A stretch of DNA of 64,000 nt, taken from the NCBI GenBank assembly GCA_963708075.1, contig OY970194.1, positions 448,001-512,000 of the forward strand, written 5' to 3'. Shown here piece after piece: positions 8,963 to 35,981 of this stretch. The first letter of the stretch is position 1, and each line of letters starts with the position of its first letter. Below the pieces are notes generated by a model. That model did not search any database and was not told the origin of the DNA. It was given only the letters and a program-made list of their open reading frames with translations. Made by a program: the position numbers and the translations under genes. Source of the DNA: Sedimentisphaerales bacterium (GTDB taxonomy: Bacteria; Planctomycetota; Phycisphaerae; Sedimentisphaerales; Anaerobacaceae).

Positions 8963-10438
8963 TTACGTCAACCGCTCGGCGAGGAGGCTGCGGCGCATGT
9001 AGCTGATGACGCGAACGTTGAAGAATTCGTTCAACGGGAGACGTTCCCAGACCGCCACGACGATGGGATAGCTGCCGATCTGCCGCATGAAGGTGGTGTT
9101 GCCGTTGTGGACCTCGCTGCACAGGTCCTTCAGCACGGTCCCGATGGGGAAGAGCCTCTGGAGCATGGGAATGTCGATCTCCTGGCGGACTTTCTCGATC
9201 CAGGGGGTATAGTATTTCTGATTCCGGCGGAGGTATTTCTGGCCGGCCTGTTCATACAGTGCGGTCCCCGGGAACGGCACGACGCGGCGGATGTTGATCC
9301 GCCGGATGAGAAGTCCCTCGTCGAGGATGCGCTTCAGGGCGGCGAAATTCTTCTCCAGCGTCTGCTCGGTTTCGCCGGCCAGGCCGAGCAGGATGTTGAT
9401 CCCCGGTAGCAAGGCGTGACAGCCGTTCTCGCCTCGGAATCCGCCGATACGATTAACCGTACGGATTGCCTCGAATGCCATGTCGTAGGGGCAGTTGAGG
9501 TTGTTCGCCCGCGTGACCTCGGGGTCGAAGGATTCGATTCCCATGGCGGCAGTGCTGCCCGGCGTCAGGTACTTGACGAAAAGCTCTGTTCGCCGCTCGT
9601 CGATCATCTGGGGATTCGCATTGTCGATGTGCAAGACAGCGGGCTTGAGTGCCGCCACACCCGCGAGCATCGCCTCCAGTTTCTGAGGATCGCCGCCTTC
9701 GTAACTGTAGATGCACGACTGTTTGCCCAGCCGGAAGGCCCTGGCGCCGAGTGACATCAAAGTTCTCACTTCCTCGATGACCAGATCGCTCGTTCGCCAC
9801 TGGACCGTGTGTTTGAGCGGCTCGGTGCAGAACGAGCAGCCTGTTTGCCGGGGGCAGCCCCGCCCAGTCTCGATCTCAACGATTCGGTTCTCCATCCGGG
9901 GCATTTGCGAGATCAGGTGGGCGCCTTTGAGAGCATAAGGCTGAAGCTCCTCGTAGGTCTCGAACGCGAAAGGGCGCAGCTCGTCGAAATCTTCGGCCTG
10001 AGGCACTTGTGGGCGAGAGCCGCCGCGGAACTGCGTGCCGCCGGTCAGGACCGGGCCGGTCAGGACCTTGCGCATGGGGAACGATCCCAGCAACTTCCTG
10101 GCCTCTCGCGGCGTCCCCGGCCGGGCGCTGAGGTACTTGCCGGGCGTCTGCACGCCGATGATGAGGACCAGTTCCTCGGTGTTCTCCAGGACCCGCCGGA
10201 TTTCCTCGTAGCTGCGAGTGTGGTTGAGCACCTCAATGTGCGTCCGTCCCGCGGGTGGGTCGATCACGACCCTGGGGACCGATTCGACATATCGGACGAG
10301 TCGGATGTCATCGATCGTCAGATAGGTCGGCTCTTCTTCATACAATCCGGCCACGTAGCGGGGCCAGACCCCTACGAACGGCGGGACGCCTAGCCCCGCC
10401 GGCTCATCGGTATAACAATCCAGGATTGCCCTTGTCAT
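8963..10438 (-). CDS. Radical SAM protein, COG1031-like, with C-terminal TRAM-like region
   Basis: N-terminal DxYTDEPAGLGVPP; EIETGRGCPRQTGCSFC (Cx5Cx2C); RRINIRRV. Confidence 0.8.
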   Translation of the reverse strand: MTRAILDCYTDEPAGLGVPPFVGVWPRYVAGLYEEEPTYLTIDDIRLVRYVESVPRVVIDPPAGRTHIEVLNHTRSYEEIRRVLENTEELVLIIGVQTPGKYLSARPGTPREARKLLGSFPMRKVLTGPVLTGGTQFRGGSRPQVPQAEDFDELRPFAFETYEELQPYALKGAHLISQMPRMENRIVEIETGRGCPRQTGCSFCTEPLKHTVQWRTSDLVIEEVRTLMSLGARAFRLGKQSCIYSYEGGDPQKLEAMLAGVAALKPAVLHIDNANPQMIDERRTELFVKYLTPGSTAAMGIESFDPEVTRANNLNCPYDMAFEAIRTVNRIGGFRGENGCHALLPGINILLGLAGETEQTLEKNFAALKRILDEGLLIRRINIRRVVPFPGTALYEQAGQKYLRRNQKYYTPWIEKVRQEIDIPMLQRLFPIGTVLKDLCSEVHNGNTTFMRQIGSYPIVVAVWERLPLNEFFNVRVISYMRRSLLAERLT

Positions 10439-10545
10439 TTACTATTTACCATTTACGATTTACCATTTAGGATCGACGTTTGATCGTTACGGTTCTGGGC
10501 CACCCACCCGGCAGATTGTAAGTCGTAGACGGCAAATTGTAAATC
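10437..10545. repeat. Inverted pair of degenerate heptamer tandem repeats (ATTTACN / NGTAAAT)
   Basis: atttact-atttacc-atttacg-atttacc, then attgtaa-gtcgtag...attgtaaatc, between divergent genes. Confidence 0.7.
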
Positions 10546-27835: not shown

Positions 27836-27909
27836 GTAGGGTGGGTTCTCAACCCACGCGTCAAGAACGTTTCGTTTGGGGAACCGCGTGGGTCAAGGAC
27901 CCACCCTAC
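27836..27909. repeat. REP doublet (REPIN-like): two inverted GTAG-hairpin REPs
   Basis: GTAGGGTGGGTTCTCAACCCACGCG...CGCGTGGGTCAAGGACCCACCCTAC; same REP recurs near 62372, 62592 and 62738. Confidence 0.8.
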
Positions 27910-28099: not shown

Positions 28100-29359
28100 A
28101 TGCTGCAAATCCTCCGTACCGCACGACTCTCACTGTGCCTTGTGCTTTTCGCAGCCACGCTGAGGCTCCATGCCGCCGAGCCGTTGCAGGTCACTCTGAC
28201 CGATGTTGCGGAGAACGTTTACATCGAATCGCTGCACCTGACGAGCGACCAGGTGACGCCCGACTGTCCCCACTCCTGGTCCGTGCGCAAATATGTCCTG
28301 CACGGCGGCAGGCAGGAGGGTGTGGAAGTGATCGACGTCGATAACGGCAAGCTTCGTCTCCGCGTCGTCCCGACCCGCGGCATGTCCGTGCAGAACGTCG
28401 TCTCGGGGGACCTCCGGCTCGGCTGGGATTCGCCCGTCAAAGACATGGTCCACCCGGGGCTAGTGAACCTCGAATCGCGTCAGGGGCTGGGTTGGCTGGA
28501 GGGTTTCAACGAGTGGATGGTGCGATGCGGCCTGGAGTTCTTCGGCGGTCCCGGGACCGACGAGTTCATCGACAACACGGGCAACAAAGCCAAAATGGAC
28601 CTGACCCTGCATGGCAAGATCGGCAACATCCCCGCCTCAATGGTGCAGGTGGTGGTTGATCGCGCGGAGCCGTACGAGATCCGGATTCGCGGCAGGGTGG
28701 AGGAAACCTGCATGCACGGCCCGAAGCTGGAGCTGTGGACAGAGCTCTCGACGCGGGCCGGCTCGGACGCCTTCCGTATCTCCGACAAAATCACTAACCG
28801 CAGCGCCAAAGAGCAGGAGTTCGGGGTCCTGTACCATGCGAACTACGGCCCGCCCCTGATGGAGGAGAACGCCCGGTTTATCGGACCGGTCAAGCGGATC
28901 GCCCCGATCAACCCCAATGCCGCGGCTGATGTCTCCAGTTATGACGTCTGCCGGGGCCCGTCGCCCGGCGTGGCCGAGCAGGTCTACTGCCTGTGGTTGT
29001 GGGCTGACCAGAGCGACCGCACGAAGATCATGTTTCGAAACGCCCGGGGCGACAAAGCGGTTGTCATGGCTTTCTCCGTGAAAGAGCTGCCGTACTTCAC
29101 GATCTGGAAGAACCCCGTCGCTCTCGAAGATGGGTACGTCACCGGCCTGGAACCGGGCACGGGCTTCCCCCGCAACAGGTCCATCGAGCGAAAGTCCGGC
29201 CGCGTCCCCGTCCTGGGCCCCCATCAGAGCCGCACGTTCACCCTCGATTTCCTCATGCTCGCCGACGCAACCCGGATCGCCGAAACCGCCCGCGAGATCG
29301 CGAGGATCCAAGCCGACCGCAAAACCCAGATCGACGAAAAGCCCCTGCCCCTGGAGTAA
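28100..29359 (+). CDS. Aldose 1-epimerase-like protein (DUF4432/YihR type), secreted
   Basis: LHGGRQEGV, VVPTRGM, LGWDSP, LHGKIGNIPA, YHANYGPP, GYVTGLEPGT. Confidence 0.85.
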   Translation: MLQILRTARLSLCLVLFAATLRLHAAEPLQVTLTDVAENVYIESLHLTSDQVTPDCPHSWSVRKYVLHGGRQEGVEVIDVDNGKLRLRVVPTRGMSVQNVVSGDLRLGWDSPVKDMVHPGLVNLESRQGLGWLEGFNEWMVRCGLEFFGGPGTDEFIDNTGNKAKMDLTLHGKIGNIPASMVQVVVDRAEPYEIRIRGRVEETCMHGPKLELWTELSTRAGSDAFRISDKITNRSAKEQEFGVLYHANYGPPLMEENARFIGPVKRIAPINPNAAADVSSYDVCRGPSPGVAEQVYCLWLWADQSDRTKIMFRNARGDKAVVMAFSVKELPYFTIWKNPVALEDGYVTGLEPGTGFPRNRSIERKSGRVPVLGPHQSRTFTLDFLMLADATRIAETAREIARIQADRKTQIDEKPLPLE

Positions 29360-29491
29360 CCCGCTGCATCTGCCTCTGCCGCCCATTGACAATCGGACCA
29401 CGGGCAGGCAACATGGGCGTCCATGGTCGGGACTGTGCGAGAGTTGGATATCGATGCCGTGCACCAAGCCCGCATCAGCGGCACCACGGAT

Positions 29492-29860
29492 TGGCAGGGG
29501 CGATTCGCGTCGTTTGCGATGGATGAGCGATACCTGCTGCGGGCGGCACGGTACGTGGAGTTGAATCCGGTCCGGGCGAAGCTGTGTCGGGTTCCGTGGC
29601 GGTGGCGCTGGTCGAGTGCGGCCGCTCACATGAGCGGACGCGATGACGGCCTGGTGCGAGTGGCACCTTTGCTGGAGCGCGTGAAGGATTGGCGGGAGTT
29701 CCTGACCGCGGCCCTGACGGCAGACGAAGCCGAGTTGTTGCGGCGTCACGGGCGGACGGGGCGGCCTCTGGGCGAAGCGGCCTTTCTGGATCGGATCGAA
29801 CGAAGGCTTCATCGAATCGTACGGCCGGCCAAACGCGGCCCAAAACCCATGGAGAAATAA
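29492..29860 (+). pseudogene. C-terminal fragment of a RAYT-like Y1 transposase
   Basis: WQGRFASF...ARYVELNPVRA...WRWSSAAAH...TGRPLG; the N-terminal HUH half is absent. Confidence 0.8.
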
Positions 29861-29892
29861 GTATTGTGTCCCTGGAACCCCCCTGGAACCCC

Positions 29893-30108
29893 CAACTGCT
29901 GATCTACGGCGTGTGCCGCTACAGCCGAGCGGGAGAGAGCTTGACCGCGTTGGCGAAACGCTTCGACATCTCACTGAGTGGCCTGACGATGGCCCGCGAC
30001 CGCGCCGAGCAGACGCTTCGTCGGGACAAGAAACTCCTGGAAGCCTGGTCGCAGATCGAACAGAGCCTTAAAGCACTGCGATGAATGTGAAATGTGTAGG
30101 TGTGACCC
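29893..30108 (+). mobile_element. 216-bp duplicate of the 3' end and right terminal repeat of the element at 30631-31766
   Basis: Matches 31551-31766, with one mismatch seen (caactgct vs caactact). Confidence 0.92.
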
Positions 30109-30200
30109 TATGAATCCCGTCAAGATGTGTCTTCTCCACGATAATGCCTTCGGGTGATAGACAGACTTTGCGGAAGTAGTGTTGTCAAGGGAGACTGCCC

Positions 30201-30551
30201 ATGCAGATACGTACAGTCGATGACTTGAAGAATGCGGCATGCATGATGCACGATTCGGAGTTCACGGACGAGAGTTTCGGCCTTGATAGCAGCACACGGA
30301 CGTTCTACATGGAATCGGTGGCTATTGATCCTCCGGGGGAAGTATTTCGGTTGGAGCTATACAATGTGATCGCATGGAACCCAGTGAATCTTGATAAGGT
30401 GAAAGCGGGGAAAGCTCTTGGCGGTGTATTCAACAAGGTCCGCATTAGGCACGGTGGATGCGAGATAGCCATAGTGAGCCAAGATCTTCGTATCGAATTG
30501 GAACTCACCAGCCTCGAGGGACGCTTTACGATCACGAAAGGCCAAGGGTAA
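30201..30551 (+). CDS. Hypothetical 116-aa cargo protein
   Basis: GGAG RBS before ATG; AT-richer than flanks; lies between element ends. Confidence 0.65.
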   Translation: MQIRTVDDLKNAACMMHDSEFTDESFGLDSSTRTFYMESVAIDPPGEVFRLELYNVIAWNPVNLDKVKAGKALGGVFNKVRIRHGGCEIAIVSQDLRIELELTSLEGRFTITKGQG

Positions 30552-30660
30552 GCAGTGAGCTGAAAGGAGCGGAGAACGAGGGACAATGACCTGTGAAAGG
30601 TCCGTACGTGACACACTGATTACGAATACGGGGTCACACCTACACATTTCACATTTGTTC

Positions 30661-30690
30661 TTGACGAGGCCCACGGGTCCGGTGTATTCT
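30661..30690 (+). promoter_or_regulatory. Putative sigma70-type promoter inside the left end, reading into the transposase
   Basis: TTGACG-18 nt-TATTCT; same geometry at 33260-33289 (TTGACC-18 nt-TACTCT). Confidence 0.45.
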
Positions 30691-30731
30691 GGCGGACGTT
30701 GGAGATCTGCTTGTCTGAAAGGAGACTGTGT

Positions 30732-31742
30732 ATGGCTCGTCCGTTGCGGATCGAGTATGCGGGTGCCTGCTATCATGTGATGAATCGGGGCAATGGGCGG
30801 CAGGCCGTGTTCACTGAGGCGAGAGACTATGAGCTGTTCCTGGAGCGGCTGGGCCAGTTCAGCCGGCAGTTCGAGGTGGGGCTGTTGTGCTACTGCTGCA
30901 TGCCGAATCACTTCCATCTGTACCTGCGGACCGAGCAGGCGAATCTCAGCCGCTTCATGCAGAGCCTTCTGACGAGCTTCACGATCAGCCTCAACCGCCG
31001 TCGGCGCAGCCGCGGGCACGTCTTCCAGGGCCGCTTCACGGCCCATCTGGTCGAGAATGACGCCTACGGCGGCGAGGTCTCACGCTACATCCATCTCAAT
31101 CCGGTCCGGACCAAGGCACTGCGGCCGGCGTCCGTGTCGGCCAGACGGCGGGCGCTGCGTGCGTTTGGCTGGTCGAGCTATGCAGCCTGCATCGGCTTGT
31201 CGCCGGGCCCGAAGTGGTTTGATCCCGGGCCGCTTCTGTCGGACTGGGGGGCGAGCCGACGCGTTCAGATGCGGCGATATGGCCAGTACGTCGAGGAAGG
31301 CCTGCTGCGGGAGTTGGACAACCCGCTGGCCCGACTGGAGGGCCAGACGATCCTGGGGACGGAGACCTTCCTTGACCACATTCGGCGGACCTACGTGCTG
31401 ACGCGAAACGCCGATCGGCGAGAGCAGCCGGCGTTCGAGCGGGCCCGGCAGTCGATTCCTTTTGACGCGGTGGCCGGCTGTGTGGGGCGCCACTGCGGAG
31501 TCCGGCCGGAGAGCCTGCTGACGCTGCGCGGCTCGGACCGCCGTGCGAGGCAACTACTGATCTACGGCGTGTGCCGCTACAGCCGAGCGGGAGAGAGCTT
31601 GACCGCGTTGGCGAAACGCTTCGACATCTCACTGAGTGGCCTGACGATGGCCCGCGACCGCGCCGAGCAGACGCTTCGTCGGGACAAGAAACTCCTGGAA
31701 GCCTGGTCGCAGATCGAACAGAGCCTTAAAGCACTGCGATGA
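30732..31742 (+). CDS. RAYT-like Y1 (HUH) tyrosine transposase with C-terminal HTH
   Basis: MARPLRIEYAGACYHVMNRGNGRQAVF, MPNHFHL (HUH), GHVFQGRF, RYIHLNPVR (catalytic Tyr), WSSY; C-terminal SLTALAKRFDIS helix-turn-helix. Confidence 0.92.
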   Translation: MARPLRIEYAGACYHVMNRGNGRQAVFTEARDYELFLERLGQFSRQFEVGLLCYCCMPNHFHLYLRTEQANLSRFMQSLLTSFTISLNRRRRSRGHVFQGRFTAHLVENDAYGGEVSRYIHLNPVRTKALRPASVSARRRALRAFGWSSYAACIGLSPGPKWFDPGPLLSDWGASRRVQMRRYGQYVEEGLLRELDNPLARLEGQTILGTETFLDHIRRTYVLTRNADRREQPAFERARQSIPFDAVAGCVGRHCGVRPESLLTLRGSDRRARQLLIYGVCRYSRAGESLTALAKRFDISLSGLTMARDRAEQTLRRDKKLLEAWSQIEQSLKALR

Positions 31743-31769
31743 ATGTGAAATGTGTAGGTGTGACCCTCT

Positions 31770-31985
31770 ATGACAATATCTGGTTGGTTCCGTGATCGTT
31801 GGGATTGGGATTGGGAGAGGCCAAAGCGTATGCGCGATAACCACCAGTACTGGGAGTATGACGATGGTTATCCATTTGCAGTTGTAGGAAATTGGGACGC
31901 ATGGGATTTGACTAATCTCGGCAGGCCTGGCACAACATGGAAATGGACAGAGATGGTCTCCTGGAAGGAGTTCTTCAACTGGTGA
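31770..31985 (+). CDS. Hypothetical Trp-rich 71-aa ORF, possibly the captured C-terminal fragment of a larger gene
   Basis: ATG 4 nt after the right terminal repeat with no RBS; stop immediately before the next ORF. Confidence 0.4.
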   Translation: MTISGWFRDRWDWDWERPKRMRDNHQYWEYDDGYPFAVVGNWDAWDLTNLGRPGTTWKWTEMVSWKEFFNW

Positions 31986-31987
31986 GT

Positions 31988-32522
31988 ATGACAAAGACGG
32001 GCGTATGCACGATGAGGGTCGCAGGGGGCATCTTCCTGTTACTGCTGTTGGCAGCAGGTTTAACGATCCTTGCGATGAGGCCTTTCCTCGGCACACGTGC
32101 CTCATTCAAACGCTTTGTGATTTGCCCGATTCCACGATCTGTCCAGAACATCAAGACGGACCTATGCAGGATATCGTCTCTTCGAGAACCGATGGTGGGA
32201 GGGATACCACGAGCGTGCAGTCATCTTGCGTTTTGAGATCGGTAGAGACGATCTCTTGCGTATAGTTGCAACACGTGGCTTTATGCCTGTGGGCGGCGGT
32301 TCATACATGAGTGAGATACTCACGCCTGTTGGCGATCACTGGGAGATCAAGCTGCCGGACCACGTGCATCACAAGACGCCCCGTTGGTTTGACTTGGCGA
32401 AATGGACGGCTCCGGAGAGCTGGACACTGGAAGAGGTGGACTCGATGCACATGAGCGTTCTGTTTTACAATGGGCAGCTCGGGTGTGCATACCTGGTCAG
32501 GTGGGAGTTGGACAGGGACTGA
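31988..32522 (+). CDS. Hypothetical membrane-anchored protein, frameshift near 32200; paralog of 32604-33203
   Basis: TM then SFKRFVICPIPRSVQNIK; second frame LRFEIGRDDL...PRWFDLAKW...LFYNGQLGCAYLVRWE. Confidence 0.65.
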
Positions 32523-32603
32523 CGACAAGACAGGAATGAGGTCGTGCGATTCCGGCGAAGCGACTAAGACGAGATTGACTGAGCAGACTAAATCCTTGAG
32601 AGA

Positions 32604-33203
32604 ATGAGCATGGCTGAGGAGAAAACGCATGCAGTGAAGCTCGCAGTGCCCATCCTCGTGGCGCTGTTTCTCGTTGTCTGTGGCGCTATCCTCGTGATGA
32701 GGTTCTTTGTCAGTCCTCGGCTGTCGTTCGGACGTTTGGTGGTCAAGCCGATTCCATCATCCGTCCATGACATAAAGCTGAACCGCTGCGAGATGTCCAC
32801 ACGGCGGGCGCGGCTGAACGGGGAGCGGCAATGGGCAGTCGTGCTGCGTTTTGCCGTCAGCAAGGACGACCTCTCGCAAATCATTGCGGCACACGCCCTC
32901 AAACGCGTAGACCTTACCGAGTATACGTATGGGAGACTCCAGTACGGATTCAGGGACGGACCTAACGCCCGGCATTACAGCGAAATAGAGCTGTACAAGA
33001 AGCGTCGTCCCGCTCCGCGTTGGTTTGACTTGGAGCAATGGAGGAACATCGAAACATACGTGTTGGAGCGAGACATTGATGGAGAAGGTTGGATGGATGT
33101 ATGGCTCCTGCTCTATAATGAGCAATCTGGGAGCGCGTACTTCATCCGGTACGAGGGGAACGTAGTTACTATCAGGAGGGGCGAGTTCCAATTTCCGCAA
33201 TAA
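32604..33203 (+). CDS. Hypothetical membrane-anchored protein
   Basis: TM then SFGRLVVKPIPSSVHDIK...LRFAVSKDDL...PRWFDLEQW...LLYNEQSGSAYFIRYE. Confidence 0.75.
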   Translation: MSMAEEKTHAVKLAVPILVALFLVVCGAILVMRFFVSPRLSFGRLVVKPIPSSVHDIKLNRCEMSTRRARLNGERQWAVVLRFAVSKDDLSQIIAAHALKRVDLTEYTYGRLQYGFRDGPNARHYSEIELYKKRRPAPRWFDLEQWRNIETYVLERDIDGEGWMDVWLLLYNEQSGSAYFIRYEGNVVTIRRGEFQFPQ

Positions 33204-33221
33204 AGGGGGTAATAAAGGGGT

Positions 33222-33634
33222 GGGGTCACGTCTTGAATAAGGAATAAGGATCTACTTGCTTGACCTCGCGTCGTGACATGTTGTACTCTGGTGTTCATGG
33301 GGAGGGAAGAAGGGGTCATCCATATAGGGTTCTTGTCAAGTACAAAAATACTCTCCCTGAACCGAAATTTTTACGCCTCTGCCGAGTCGGCGCTTCGGTC
33401 GGGCTCTGTCGGCCTGTGTTTTGCTGCGCGACAATCATCTCACGAACCGCTCCGGGCGTCCGGCTCTGCTTGGCACCTGCGAGTTCTCTCTGGTTTCATT
33501 CGTCGAGTCCGCCTGTCCCCAGGCGGCTCTCTCGCGCAGTCATCCATCCGGATCTAGGCCGGGCGTCACGGGCTAAACCTAGCGGAGGGGCGGTAAACGG
33601 GGTCACGTCCTGAATAAGGAATTACTCGCTTGAC
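33222..33634 (+). repeat. Two direct copies of a second left-end sequence (33222-33264 and 33599-33634)
   Basis: GGGGTCACGTC(T/C)TGAATAAGGAAT...TACT(T/C)GCTTGAC; the second copy precedes a RAYT-like start. Confidence 0.8.
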
Positions 33635-33666
33635 GGCACCGTGCGCGGCGTTGTGCCCTTGCGCTC

Positions 33667-33966
33667 ATGGCACGACCCTTCATCGATCAGGAGGATACGT
33701 TTTATCACGTGCTCAATCGCGGCAATGAGCGGCGGGCCATCTTTCGCGACGAGCACGACTATGAGAGCTTTCTTGACCGGCTGGGCCGGTGCTCGCAGCG
33801 GTTCGGGTTGCGTGTCTTTGCCTATGTGCTCATGGGCAACCACTACCATCTTCTGGTCAAGACGGGCGAAGCGAACCTCTCGGCGGCGATGCAGTGGCTG
33901 CAAGTGGCGTACGGCTCATGGCATAACCGCCGGCACCGGCGAAGCGGGCACCTGTTCCAGGGACGC
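33667..33966 (+). pseudogene. N-terminal fragment of a RAYT-like Y1 transposase
   Basis: MARP...YHVLNRGNERRAIF...MGNHYHLL...SGHLFQGR, after which homology to 30732-31742 stops. Confidence 0.85.
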
Positions 33967-34237
33967 CGCCCATCCCACGTGTCGGGGCAGCGCCATCGGC
34001 AAGCTCCGAGGACTCCGCTTGCCGCTGCCACCCATCGTAAGTCGTGGCTGCATAACAACTTACACCTGTCTTTCGCCTGTGCGCAAAAACGCAGCACTGT
34101 AAGTCTCTTGGCCACAAGGGCTTAGAGGTATTCTTCGCTATGTGACACGAATTCCTGTAACAATCCGGTCCAGCGAGCGTCTCCGTTATATGGTCTAACG
34201 ACCAGTTTCGCCGGGCGCCGGCGAGTCCGGAAAGGCG

Positions 34238-34416
34238 GGTGTGGTCGGCCTTTGGTGGCGGATTCCGGTCTCCGCGTAGGACGAGCGTCCCCGCTCGTCC
34301 ATTGCAGGGATCTGCAATCGACAGGATGTGGTGCGAGGCCATGCGACAAAAGGGGCGAGCGGGGACGCTCACCCTACGAAGAGCGGCACCAATCGCCACC
34401 GTATTCCGACCGCACC
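34238..34416. repeat. Nested palindromic element: outer inverted repeat enclosing a GTAG REP doublet (34276-34377)
   Basis: GGTGTGGTCGG..TGGTGGCG / CGCCACC..CCGACCGCACC outside; GTAGGACGAGCGTCCCCGCTCGTCC / GGGCGAGCGGGGACGCTCACCCTAC inside. Confidence 0.7.
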
Positions 34417-34604
34417 CGGAAAGGCCGTGAGCAGATCAAGAATCAAACATCATCAATCATCAATCGTAAATCATGAATCTCCGGGGGTCTTGCCATGAGC
34501 GGTAAAGCACGCATCGCCGCCGGCGGGCCTGGAAGTGCGGAGTGCGGAGTGCGGAGTGCGGAATGCGGAGTGCGGAGCGAAGGCGGCGAGCGGATGAATG
34601 AGTC

Positions 34605-35121
34605 TGCGAAACAAAGCCAGTCTGGGGCCGGGGGCCTGGGAATGCGGATTGCGGATTGCGGATTGAAGGGCCGGGAGCGGATGAGCGAATGTGCGAAACA
34701 AAGCCAATTGGGCGAATTGGGACGAGGCCAAAGCCTGTCCCCCGAAGCCGGGCAGTGGCGTCGCCACGTGGGGAGGGCCTGTGTGCGAAACAAAGCCAAT
34801 TTCCGTGGTCGGCCCTGCCGATGGGCGCATCGTGCGAAACAAAGCCAATCTAAGGCGTCTCAGGACGACCGTCGCCAATCCTTCGACAAGCTCAGGAAGG
34901 GCGCTTCGCTTGAGGCTGCCACCCGGGATGGGAGGGGGCGATTGTGTGAAACAAAGCCAATCTGCATGGAACAGGCTGAGGGCGGGAGGCCGGAGGGGAT
35001 TGCATGGGTGGTTTTGCGAAACAAAGCCAATGCGGGCCGGGGGCCGGGGAGTGCGGAGTGCGGAGTGCGGAATACGGATTGAAGGCGGCGAGCGGATGAA
35101 TGATTCTGCGAAACAAAGCCA
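34605..35121 (+). repeat. Array of 7 direct repeats TG(C/T)GAAACAAAGCCA with variable spacers
   Basis: Cores start at 34605, 34692, 34784, 34833, 34945, 35015 and 35107. Confidence 0.9.
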
Positions 35122-35300
35122 ATTTGTGGAAGACGGGCACGGGCGGGGCCGCTCGAACCTGGTGGGGGCGTTGTCGTAGGGATAATGTCAATTCGGATGC
35201 CGCCGGACTCGCAAAATTGCGAAATTTGGGCTTTACAAGTACCGGCAGGGGCCTTTATAGTACCCGGTTTGAAAGATATAGTCCCAGGGAGGTCCGAAGT

Positions 35301-35981
35301 ATGGCCATATGGAACAAAAACACGATCTACTACGGGGTAACTGCGCTGGTCCTGGCGTTCATGGTGGGCCTGGCTGTTCTCAACGGGTGCAAGAAAGAGC
35401 AACCGCCCGCGAAGACCGAGGTACCGGCGGCTGGTTCTACATCGCCGTCAACGACGGGCGAGGCCTCCAAGGACCCGATCCAGGCGGCAAAGAGCCTGTT
35501 CGGCGACTCGAAGGCGAGCCTGCAGAAGGCCATCGATGAGGCCAAGACGTGGGAGCCGACATTCGAGCAGTGGCAGGGCAAGATCGCTCCGGACTTCACC
35601 CTGACCGATCTCGATGGCAACGTTCAGAAACTGAGCAACTACCGCGGCAAGGACGTGCTCGTTGTAATGTGGGCCACCTGGTGCGGCCCGTGCAAGCTGG
35701 AAGCTCCCGAGCTGATCGAGCTTCGCAAGTCCGTCGGGCCGGACAAACTGGCTATTCTGGCGATCTCCCGGGAGGACCCGGCGTTGCTGAAGAGCTTCGC
35801 CGCCCAGAACCAGTTGAACTACACGGTGATGTCCAGCGCCGGCGCGACGCTGCCCGCTCCGTATAGCGAAGTTCAGGCCATCCCCAGCGGGTTCTTCATC
35901 GACGCGGAAGGCAAGATCAAGTTGTCGACGATGGGAATGCTGCCGCGGGTGGACATCAACAAGATCCTGGAGGTGAAATAG
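35301..35981 (+). CDS. TlpA-like thiol-disulfide oxidoreductase lipoprotein
   Basis: Lipobox LNGC; APDFTLTDLDG; WATWCGPC; cis-Pro motif AIPS. Confidence 0.9.
   Translation: MAIWNKNTIYYGVTALVLAFMVGLAVLNGCKKEQPPAKTEVPAAGSTSPSTTGEASKDPIQAAKSLFGDSKASLQKAIDEAKTWEPTFEQWQGKIAPDFTLTDLDGNVQKLSNYRGKDVLVVMWATWCGPCKLEAPELIELRKSVGPDKLAILAISREDPALLKSFAAQNQLNYTVMSSAGATLPAPYSEVQAIPSGFFIDAEGKIKLSTMGMLPRVDINKILEVK

Follow-up and report, generated by a model that had tools for sequence, protein, structure and literature searches.

Integrons are defined by the IntI integrase and the attI and attC sites, ISCR and IS91 elements capture DNA by a one-ended route, and IS21 and IS30 form cointegrates through tandem-IS junctions. 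The locus reported in this study lies in a 64,000-nucleotide stretch (the window) of a Sedimentisphaerales genome, and shares with integrons short foreign genes near a recombinase, bounded by repeated sites, but it is without IntI, attC, gene-precise cassettes or an orientation fixed across lineages. ISCR/IS91 and IS21/IS30 resemble it in the mobilisation, here putative, of adjacent DNA by a lone end or an abutted right/left junction, but they rely on Y2 or DDE enzymes, whereas the enzyme here is of the Y1 type with symmetric terminal inverted repeats (TIRs). The closest described elements are the little-studied TIRtrons and their transposase, TIRYT (Di Nocera, De Gregorio and Rocco 2013, PMC3733652), a class that corresponds to TnpA-Y1 subclass 2.1 (Quentin et al. 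2018, PMC6006769), the second largest Y1 group with 14.9% of strains, and to RAYT group 1 (Bertels et al. 2017, PMC5581495). As described in the main texts of these papers, TIRtrons share with our locus a Y1/HUH gene with a Y---NP motif and a C-terminal DnaA-like HTH, GGGGWSAS TIRs that also occur solo, as dimers and in groups, and a raised duplication rate. The same main texts mention neither ends at foreign-gene borders nor Rhs tip or immunity cargo, and neither cross-family pairs, termini outside the G4 tip nor IS1111 targeting of TIRs. In the parts of the literature available to us, REPs are unreported for the TIRYT class and a demonstrated substrate or function of subclass 2.1 was not found; nor did we find a paper linking TIRtron ends with toxin-immunity genes.

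Two further systems bear comparison. The rAID-1 arrays (10.1101/471110) hold up to 31 genes beside a XerD-family tyrosine recombinase, for which active acquisition has been proposed, and polyimmunity loci adjoin XerC/D, according to the available part of PMC3482391. As far as these sources describe them, both have, like our locus, co-directional orphan immunity genes of skewed GC beside a recombinase together with intergenic repeats, but their recombinase is a XerD-family tyrosine recombinase and ours an HUH transposase; here 1-3 genes make up a block, toxin-tip fragments remain, and element ends from several families serve as the repeats. No XerD-like or other tyrosine recombinase was found among the 11 ORFs scanned at the locus. 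The association of TnpA-REP with prochlorosins in picocyanobacteria (10.1101/2020.03.09.984088), whose causality was left open by its authors, likewise involves a subclass 2.1 enzyme, present as whole copies and C-terminal fragments among variable conflict-type genes in fixed orientation; there, however, the genes point towards the transposase and TIRs were not detected, whereas here TIRs lie at the joints and cargo is co-oriented within the genus.

An earlier note on this DNA had read positions 29492-33966 as blocks of cargo set between Y1 transposase ends, and the overall order of the pieces is borne out, with corrections to individual parts. The features are as follows:

29376-29495, + strand: promoter-like/start stub of unknown origin
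29492-29860, + strand: C-terminal fragment of an A-type (short, ~230 aa) TIRYT, beginning at the conserved WQGRF motif
29858-29892, + strand: A-type right end (29858-29873) and a short reiteration of its outer flank
29893-30113, + strand: 217-nt copy of the intact B-type gene's 3' end, right TIR (30084-30109) included
30201-30551, + strand: cargo 1, 116-aa protein of unknown function, GC 0.50
30624-31773, + strand: complete B-type TIRtron, 1,150 bp, left TIR 30630-30655, right TIR 31742-31767
30661-30690, + strand: promoter-like site inside the B-type TIRtron
30732-31742, + strand: TIRYT transposase, 336 aa, with HUH (H60, H62), Y119-x-x-x-NP and a C-terminal DnaA-domain-IV-like HTH
31770-31985, + strand: Rhs C-terminal (toxin-tip) fragment lacking its 5' part, from the TIRtron right terminus on
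31988-32522, + strand: frameshifted immunity-family gene, seen as ORFs 31937-32236 and 32226-32522
32604-33203, + strand: intact 199-aa membrane-anchored immunity-family gene
33222-33300, + strand: C-type left TIR, with a short reiteration ahead of it, plus promoter-like region and ATG stub
33312-33573, + strand: TIR tip (33312-33318), then an IS110/IS1111-type non-coding end
33599-33966, + strand: second C-type left TIR and C-type TIRYT N-terminal fragment (33667-33966), broken at GHLFQGR
33993-34033, + strand: abundant REP-like repeat joined to the C-type fragment, 77 copies

The Y1 gene at 30732-31742 is indeed intact and flanked by TIRs of 25-30 nt (25 nt perfect, 30 nt at 93%), both of which follow the consensus GGGGWSAS (left GGGGTCAC, right AGGGTCAC). 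The termini of the element lie ~4-7 nt outside GGGG/CCCC, and its limits in the run contigs are identical to those in the window. A second copy at genome 6908893-6910042 shows 5 differences (99.6% identity) and an identical protein (100%), and neither full copy has a target duplication; the enzyme at this locus is intact and recently mobile, with defined termini. H60, H62, Y119, N123 and P124 are invariant across 55 TIRYT sequences, and the protein matches PF01797 (E=9e-11). Its structure model (pLDDT 90.6) has 4ER8 as top fold match, and the model also matches DNA-binding domains of DnaA (3PVP and 1J1V; rmsd 1.9, E-values weak); PF08299 was found on several homologues, the window protein itself giving no Pfam HTH match. 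A REPtron (subclasses 2.2/2.5) was rejected, since TIRs take the place of REP hairpins and the NF047646 score, 66.5 bits, is below the cut-off of 80. The transposase, placed by its features rather than by the authors' profiles or tree, is a TIRYT of the TIRtron class, TnpA-Y1 subclass 2.1, and the former label of a REP-mobilising RAYT gives way to a TIR-associated enzyme.

The TIRtron pieces of the cluster stem from three families. What had passed for a single transposase C-terminal fragment is two unrelated pieces from different TIRtrons: the A-type fragment, 47% identical to the full copy at genome 4637179 (tblastn; NF047646 E=5.6e-6), and the B-type duplicate (29893-30109), which has 1 mismatch to the intact gene, at 29898. 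The A-type end is also joined here, at 29893, into the middle of a TIRYT gene, and run X2 carries a variant of 29858-29892 with an extra 19-nt reiteration. A 78% copy of the start stub occurs at genome 6911517-6911635, where an Rhs core fragment adjoins it at the corresponding point. On the other side, the two C-type left ends (33222, 33599) and the N-terminal transposase fragment (91-93% identical to other copies, with a PF01797 match) were read correctly, the first of these ends beginning 19 bp past the immunity stop. Besides the 5' C-type stub and a third TIR tip, the supposed spacer between them holds, as its larger part, the non-coding end of what we take, from its sequence features, to be an IS110/IS1111-type element, with a ~13-nt sub-terminal inverted repeat and a long downstream non-coding region. 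Its full copy lies at genome 6551358-6553040 (transposase 341 aa), and the element sits inside a C-type TIR in locus L311, and in this genome it precedes the remnant of a B-like TIR, the insertion point being within the TIR, after GGGGTCA.

As the earlier note had it, both cargo blocks are bracketed by outward-facing TGACCC on one side and GGGGTCAC on the other, are AT-richer (GC 0.51 and 0.54 vs 0.604 for the genome) and run in the orientation of the transposase. Eight other homologues of cargo 1 were found, one of them (71%) in a genome of the same family. The "three cargo ORFs" of the second block represent a 5'-truncated Rhs tip, one immunity gene that a frameshift splits into two ORFs and its intact paralogue, so that two co-directional low-GC orphan immunity-family genes are present; the frameshift, near 32200, is seen in the assembly and bridged by no listed read piece. 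The tip has no Rhs core homology ahead of it; it resembles (32%, E=6e-4) the tip at genome 6908118-6908909, which in turn shares 44% identity with the tip carried by an Rhs core gene of genome G014, and no intact Rhs gene was found in this genome. The 199-aa family also lies 3' of the cognate tip in this genome, G011 and G014, and from this position after the tip in three genomes a putative immunity role is assigned to 31988-32522 and 32604-33203. Among 11 homologues of the 199-aa gene, an end lies within 66 bp of the stop in 6, 4 have no nearby end and 1 is cut off by the contig end. The 5' cargo joints fall inside genes, and truncated tips recur.

Across the genome, the outer side of the ends carries a foreign signature. 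Outer GC at B ends is 0.533 vs 0.604 for the genome, and falls below 0.55 in 20/29 ends vs 7.8% of random windows and 12/85, 1/24 and 3/77 copies of three control repeats, one of which is the REP-like family at 33993-34033. With genes called by our own heuristic caller, as in all scripted counts, GC3 was <0.62 in the nearest outer gene of 36/62 ends vs the nearest inner gene of 12/61 (Fisher p=2e-5); one control family also has low-GC3 genes on one side (15/60), and REPs too commonly face stop codons (14/21, 12/15). Of 25 adjacent transposase-free end pairs 0.4-6 kb apart, 14 face outward, enclosing low-GC DNA, 8 are in tandem and 3 face inward (p=0.0016), and 10 of the 14 bracketing pairs combine different end families. 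Solo ends make up 20/29 B ends, with unrelated inner DNA directly past the TIR. Bracketed cargo includes Fic, TIR/ThsB, HEPN, DUF4238, PIN, CdiI_3, SIR2-like, FGE-sulfatase and HEAT genes, and a two-gene defence block (genome 6900564-6902461) is ~27 bp from the bracketing end on each side. A cargo gene duplicated in this genome (965 bp, 94.5%) shows no end-precise limits common to its copies. A composite transposon was rejected in view of the 3 inward vs 14 outward pairs and the lack of target duplication at full copies.

Within the genus, an end or TIRYT gene was found at 9/20 Rhs loci vs 1/20 methylase control loci (Fisher p=0.008, overstated, as p-values on these loci are, by the relatedness of the 11 genomes), in all 9 cases downstream and co-oriented, often 7-60 bp past the stop. 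Left-form motifs outnumber right-form ones 25 to 3 in the downstream windows (present at 13 and 3 of 18 loci); in narrower +/-1.5-kb loci an end occurs at only 3/30, one of them from this genome itself. Two alleles in a relative, G013, with flanks 92-96% identical, part at an A-type right terminus, and their fillers, 2.6 and ~1.1 kb, differ and both run to a B-type left end. At the glyA site cargo and ends are both absent in 5/5 relatives, and therefore both arrived there together or near in time. Relatives also differ in the DNA that follows pyrB and in the interval between the window's flanking genes, where the parts covered show no ends; some variable sites are hotspots without detected ends. 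Comparison across genomes, as proposed in the earlier note, accordingly upheld a terminus-bounded swap in a relative but not a link of all variable sites to ends, and the proposed cargo polarity holds in this genome and genus but not phylum-wide, where the Rhs link vanishes: at 20 Rhs loci in 20 other Planctomycetota genomes left-form and right-form motifs are equally common (8 each), a TIRYT gene occurs once, and some orphan Rhs arrays have no ends. TIRtron ends are nevertheless supported as genuine recombination-joint markers, because their outer side faces foreign low-GC genes, they are one-way at Rhs modules and they bound the swapped slot; of the capture or shuffling sites once envisaged this much stands, and the ordered, gene-precise integron-like array does not.

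With about an even chance of being right, we propose that independently acting TIRtron ends join foreign DNA and that selection keeps immunity and defence genes, which suggests TIRtrons helping the host to acquire protective genes. All data on the locus and its ends are snapshots, with activity, circles and cleavage unobserved. TIRYT would bind the ~26-bp TIR via its DnaA-IV-like HTH, the HUH/Y1 centre would nick 4-7 nt outside the G4 tip and the nicked end would be transferred to new DNA, the ends working largely singly and across families. Repeated transfers could leave short reiterations, solo ends and adjacent deletions, and could catch a foreign fragment between two outward-facing ends, with a 5' joint anywhere, often within the toxin gene, and a 3' joint tending to fall just past the immunity stop. 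Selection would retain products with intact immunity or defence genes, and the outcome would be a loose, end-mediated acquisition route rather than an ordered cassette machine. The stronger reading, that the ends serve an as yet undescribed HUH-driven acquisition system, gathering toxin-immunity and anti-phage genes between outward-facing ends, is more doubtful, and we regard it as rather unlikely.

A serious contender, though one we think will probably prove wrong, holds that foreign toxin/immunity and defence DNA came by other routes and the ends followed: TIRtrons, mini-elements and solo TIRs would favour AT-rich accessory genes, inserting at the 3' end, and adjacent deletions would truncate the neighbours. 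The variable sites without detected ends, the phylum-wide loss of the Rhs link and the A-type end in mid-TIRYT gene, which matches the adjacent-deletion prediction, all speak for it, as do other IS families that accumulate on these ends and the solo, dimeric and grouped TIRs already known from the main text of PMC3733652. In metagenomes the asymmetry is weak (outer GC below inner in only 13/24 solo B ends, p=0.40; low GC3 in 11/25 vs 6/32, p=0.047), and full elements (L009, L029, L135) and many TIRYT homologues lie between ordinary host genes. By itself, however, this explanation does not account for motifs running one way at Rhs loci (25 vs 3), the outward-pair excess (14 vs 3), the G013 swap, which has a terminus on either side, or the presence of tip-immunity modules here, in a genome that yielded no intact Rhs gene; the glyA site, lacking both cargo and ends in all five relatives, and the fact that no gene was found split by a full element, though without a systematic search, also count against it.

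Y1 transposition, as in IS608, includes a step that rejoins the flanks, and a dedicated integron-like system, in which an abutted right/left junction serves as empty site and TIRYT excises and re-inserts circles to build ordered arrays, would explain the ends abutted 13 bp apart in L006/L119, the G013 slot swap, tight brackets such as that of 6900564-6902461 and a 1,976-bp element-plus-cargo unit in tandem in L319, itself perhaps an assembly artefact. It is improbable in view of the mixed families in 10/14 brackets, the 5' joints within genes, the duplicated cargo gene without shared limits, orientation that varies across lineages (cargo is anti-oriented in L025) and the lack of a cargo-circle joint among the joints listed, all from assembled contigs. 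An integron proper was rejected: no match in this genome exceeds the TIGR02249 cut-off for IntI, a crude core-site and complementarity scan, run without a covariance model, found no attC-like site in the window locus or 9 other blocks and 2 weak matches genome-wide, and the mixed end families, truncated tips with mid-gene 5' joints and opposite orientation in L025 do not fit. Very improbable too are joints made by Rhs-core recombination or by a TIR-targeting IS1111-type recombinase; orphan Rhs modules do arise by recombination (PMC3482391, in the part available) and the IS1111-type element lies inside a TIR, like IS4321/IS5075 in Tn21 TIRs by the title of a reference in PMC11187229, but it enters after GGGGTCA, at a point within the TIR, and cargo is joined beyond the G4 tip; nor is the Rhs tip of the window preceded by core homology, and no integron integrase over cut-off was found. 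An assembly artefact of this single-contig MAG, to which the near-exact 217-nt duplicate, the short reiterations at ends and the joint near 29893, bridged by no listed X1 piece, might point, is scarcely credible: short-read contigs of run X1, which may be the source sample, bridge 29351-29575, 30080-30436, 30572-31188 and 31738-32024 with 0-3 differences, which clears these four joints of being long-read artefacts, and other genomes show the same designs.

Should independently acting ends indeed join foreign DNA, they would provide a gene-acquisition route for toxin-immunity and anti-phage genes that uses neither IntI nor Xer, and the stronger acquisition-system reading would make it a single-strand Y1 counterpart of rAID arrays and integrons, with a host-beneficial role for subclass 2.1. 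Even if the ends merely follow cargo, they serve as markers for new immunity and defence genes. The same design was found in an Alteromonadaceae locus with SUKH-4-like (E=8e-4) and Imm33-like (E=2e-28) genes, where a truncated upstream ORF begins 8 bp from the end.

The window sequence (genome positions 448001-512000) bears out the order of pieces described in the earlier note, and the locus is organised around one complete B-type element:

30624-31773: complete TIRtron, 1,150 bp, with terminal inverted repeats (TIRs) of 25-30 nt
30661-30690: promoter-like site inside the element

The identity of several pieces had to be revised. What had been taken for a RAYT C-terminal fragment does hold a C-terminal piece of A type (29492-29860), which has an end of its own, but it is not one piece and has a 217-nt copy of the 3' end of the intact gene attached. 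The second cargo block consists of a truncated toxin tip and two immunity paralogues (one frameshifted) rather than three ORFs. The supposed spacer breaks down into a C-type 5' stub, the tip of a TIR and part of an IS1111-type element, namely its non-coding end. Short tandem reiterations of an end plus a few outer bases were observed at window 29874-29892 and 33203-33221, at genome positions 6902437/6902461, and between stretches L313 and L341 and L373 and L375; they are polymorphic between contigs otherwise 99% identical, and are possibly the footprint of repeated local strand transfer.

H60/H62 and Y119-x-x-x-NP of the transposase are invariant in 55 aligned sequences (query included; 55 of the 120 homologues listed), and the best match of the structure model (pLDDT 90.6) is E. 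coli TnpA-REP (4ER8), with weak matches to DnaA DNA-binding domains. The HUH/Y1 motifs, the TIRs and the DnaA-like part of the model agree with a TIRYT of subclass 2.1, and on these three tested features the element is a member of the already known TIRtron class, not a REPtron. TIRYTs and TIRtrons go back to Di Nocera et al. (PMC3733652); they correspond to the subclass 2.1 defined by Quentin et al. (PMC6006769), for which Bertels et al. (PMC5581495) use the name RAYT group 1. A second copy in the same genome (6908893-6910042) has 5 base differences but the same protein sequence, which points to recent movement of the element, and neither copy is flanked by a target duplication. Co-oriented cargo could, as judged from sequence, be read through from the element's promoter; promoter-like sites were not in excess over shuffled sequences. 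Two more complete short TIRtrons (~780 bp), each with its own TIR family, were found at genome positions 4636826-4637604 and 4612301-4613077, and stretch L319 (691-4452) contains an exact 1,976-bp tandem unit of B element plus right-flank cargo, representing a circle, tandem amplification or an assembly artefact.

The nature of the cargo was judged from genomic context. Pfam/NCBIfam gave no name for any window cargo gene, the ESM Atlas returned unnamed clusters only (near 0.9), and a PDB sequence search and an Rfam search over 29000-35500 gave no match. Directly after the right terminus of the second element copy come an Rhs motif (NP..DPSG), a tip of 264 aa (genome 6908118-6908909) and a 179-aa gene; upstream lies an Rhs core fragment, the single one detected by tblastn and TIGR03696 in this single-contig 7.5-Mb genome (completeness 92.8%). 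A 71-aa ORF in the window is homologous to the end of the 264-aa tip (E=6e-4); the 179-aa gene has two homologues there, the 199-aa gene and the frameshifted one. In G014, another genome compared, an Rhs core gene ends in a tip of this family; behind it come a gene of the same downstream family and, 11 bp past the stop, an end. From this context we infer that the window genes are toxin tip and immunity genes. The 199-aa gene has 11 homologues beyond the window: 6 have an end within 66 bp of the stop, 4 have no end, and 1 is cut off. The 116-aa cargo 1 had no relatives in the metagenome scan and one homologue (71%) among 400 class genomes, with a degenerate end (3 mismatches in 16, found post hoc) ~24 bp past its stop. 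The 14 codons ahead of cargo 1 may be a tip remnant; upstream of its one homologue with genomic context the tip is missing. At that homologue (L440 1501-2606, genome G564), a four-helix-bundle gene, which we take to be 23S IVP-like, appears to be interrupted by it and by another gene of low GC, and a degenerate H-type end stands after each of the two. Three matches of the viral scan, at tRNA-like sequence in phage contigs, were dismissed as apparently due to chance.

The genome has 29 B-type ends. Twenty are solo; the others belong to transposase copies or pieces (5) or to two mini-elements of 260 bp (4). The mean GC of their outer flanks is 0.533, and 20 of 29 fall below 0.55, compared with 7.8% of random windows and 12/85, 1/24 and 3/77 of control repeats. 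After removal of 28 of 90 ends (transposase inside or nested), outer GC was lower than inner GC in 40/60 ends whose flanks were complete (Wilcoxon p=7e-4). By a purpose-written heuristic gene caller, the nearest gene had GC3<0.62 on the outer side in 36/62 and on the inner side in 12/61; control repeats gave 4/60, 1/24 and 1/60 on the outer side, one giving 15/60 on its other side. Ten motif families totalling 107 ends yielded 25 neighbouring pairs 0.4-6 kb apart with no transposase between, 8 further pairs with a transposase inside being set aside; 14 face outward, 8 are tandem and 3 inward, and the outward-facing pairs join different families in 10/14 and have a GC of 0.54 or less in 8/14. 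Low-GC3 genes hand-picked from 24 regions near ends were scanned against PADLOC (40) and Pfam (48); matches include Fic, ThsB/TIR, HEPN, DUF4238, PIN, CdiI_3, SIR2-like, Upx, PDC-M34, FGE-sulfatase and HEAT, and most of the genes had no match. One motif, F, was rejected as a TIRYT end family, since it is made up of a TIR tip and an end of IS1111 type; as the G4 orientation of its TIR is preserved, it was still counted (5/107 ends, 3/9 positive Rhs loci). A conserved 6-nt terminal sequence was also rejected, the outer bases being lineage-specific.

Several segments near the ends deserve mention. A 965-bp 5'-truncated DUF4238 segment occurs twice (1335178-1336142 and 1746266-1747230, 94.5%), near a different end family each time, and a two-gene block, nucleoside-deoxyribosyltransferase-like plus SIR2-like (6900564-6902461, L001), is bracketed by B ends ~27 bp from start and stop codons and is a candidate defence system. 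Abundant REP-like and TGCGAAACAAAGCCAAT repeat families, with dozens to >100 copies genome-wide, lie at window 34495-35130, 27836-27909 and 34270-34383; one of them has low-GC3 genes on one side in 15/60 copies.

Outside this genome, TIGR03696 gave 55 matches over the cut-off. In loci of +/-1.5 kb an end was present at 3/30 Rhs, 0/30 methylase and 0/30 recA loci; these being too short, wider stretches were taken for 21 of the 55 matches (20 loci, 11 genomes), leaving out 6 matches in 5 loci already known via the transposase, all 5 with ends, and 28 others. An end or TIRYT gene was found at 9/20 Rhs loci (5 genomes) versus 1/20 hand-picked accessory methylase loci (p=0.008, a value that is overstated because kin genomes are not independent, as are the p-values of the Rhs loci generally), and in 9/9 positive loci it was co-oriented and lay downstream of the tip. 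When the motif was relaxed, 25 left-form versus 3 right-form motifs were counted 0.5-2.6 kb after the core (13 versus 3 of 18 usable loci), the control windows giving 17 and 25 of 96, respectively. In genome G011 part of an Rhs core continues in frame from a TIRYT start (MARLARV). Core fragments joined to left ends or to TIRYT start regions were seen at L236 2357-2566, genome 6911517-6911635, L253 and L249, in frame in one case (MARLARV...), and such fusions could express orphan modules from an element promoter. Two alleles of G013 with 92-96% identical flanks part immediately past the right terminus of an A-type element. The fillers that follow differ and extend to a left end of B type, into which an IS has further inserted in one allele. 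In an Alteromonadaceae contig an intact element stands in the middle, with an immunity gene and a truncated ORF before it and an Imm33-like gene and a truncated ORF after it; a TIRYT 3' fragment-end closes the array on either side, and the cargo is oppositely oriented.

The joints lie a few bases beyond the G4 tip of the ends, show no target duplication, and connect the ends to DNA from within a gene or from after a stop. We infer that TIRYT bound to its TIR would nick and transfer each end fairly independently, the same chemistry giving rise to reiterations, solo ends and adjacent deletions, and that capture would occur when two outward-facing ends engage one foreign molecule; selection would then keep intact immunity and defence genes, toxin halves often being cut. 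End transfer by TIRYT followed by selection has, in our judgement, an even chance of being the right account of the locus. Alternatively, the locus might be an insertion hotspot later eroded, which is possible though doubtful; the enzymatic joints are identical under both readings, and the difference is whether ends or cargo came first. Of the same-genus genomes, 22/23 have some DNA in common with the locus. At the glyA site, cargo and ends are both missing in 5/5 relatives. The DNA after pyrB and the window interval (7.9 kb here, 5.1 kb in G019, ~12 kb in G021) vary among relatives, with no ends seen in the edge loci examined; both intervals may be simple hotspots. A pyrB 'empty site' in G013 was rejected as ancestral and looks like a microhomology deletion. 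For the DUF4432 gene (window 28100-29359), a search of 23 same-genus genomes gave nothing close (~30% at best), but genomes from two further genera of the family match it at 67%, and so this gene may itself be part of the variable interval.

Further results count against a general association. Twenty Rhs loci from 20 other genomes of the phylum, chosen for long contigs, showed no polarity (8 versus 8 motifs, one TIRYT gene), orphan Rhs arrays occur in the phylum without ends, and many distant TIRYT homologues are located among ordinary genes. Metagenomic B ends were compared in 81 distinct contexts: of the solo ends with both flanks, 13/24 had a lower GC outside than inside (p=0.40), and low GC3 was found at 11/25 (outer) versus 6/32 (inner) solo ends (p=0.047). 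Sequencing runs with a small share are no basis for naming a habitat. A dedicated, ordered cassette system, the integron-like role proposed earlier, is improbable. The locus is not an integron: a profile search of the genome gave no IntI over the cut-off, and a crude scan gave no attC-like site in the locus. That other recombinases built the locus we consider very improbable. An assembly artefact is scarcely credible, as short-read contigs of run X1, which may be the source sample, cross four of the joints and show 0-3 differences there, none spanning the whole locus.

Among known systems, rAID-1 is alike in outcome (10.1101/471110; polyimmunity loci beside XerC/D are described in PMC3482391), but the window locus is not an rAID-1 locus. 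The nearest published hint is the association of subclass 2.1 with prochlorosins (10.1101/2020.03.09.984088), in which TIRs were not found and the authors withdrew the causal claim. Within the accessible text, a 2026 Rhs/poly-immunity preprint (10.64898/2026.07.13.738213) mentions neither transposase nor RAYT, and a mobilome preprint (10.1101/2024.07.17.603846) contains both terms unlinked. The literature covered, to which supplements and subscription papers could add examples, reports no TIRtron/TIRYT ends at Rhs, toxin-immunity or defence cargo. The feature is real and the element class known, and its lineage-concentrated association with captured conflict genes is apparently undescribed.

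The ends are themselves targets of insertion. An element presumably of IS110/IS1111 type (window 33312-33573; genome 6551358-6553040; L311) inserts inside TIRtron TIRs after GGGGTCA, a C-type TIR in L311 and a B-like remainder in the genome; its downstream non-coding region, without Rfam match, is a candidate seek/bridge RNA. Other insertions, which we take to be IS1182-like, lie inside E-type and B-type ends (genome 6494421-6496313, L298; L118 near 9550-10530), suggesting that several IS families are attracted to TIRtron ends. Features of IS1111 follow the accessible part of PMC11187229. In L316 and L327, a gene that by eye resembles an integron integrase N-terminus has a solo B end 155 bp upstream.
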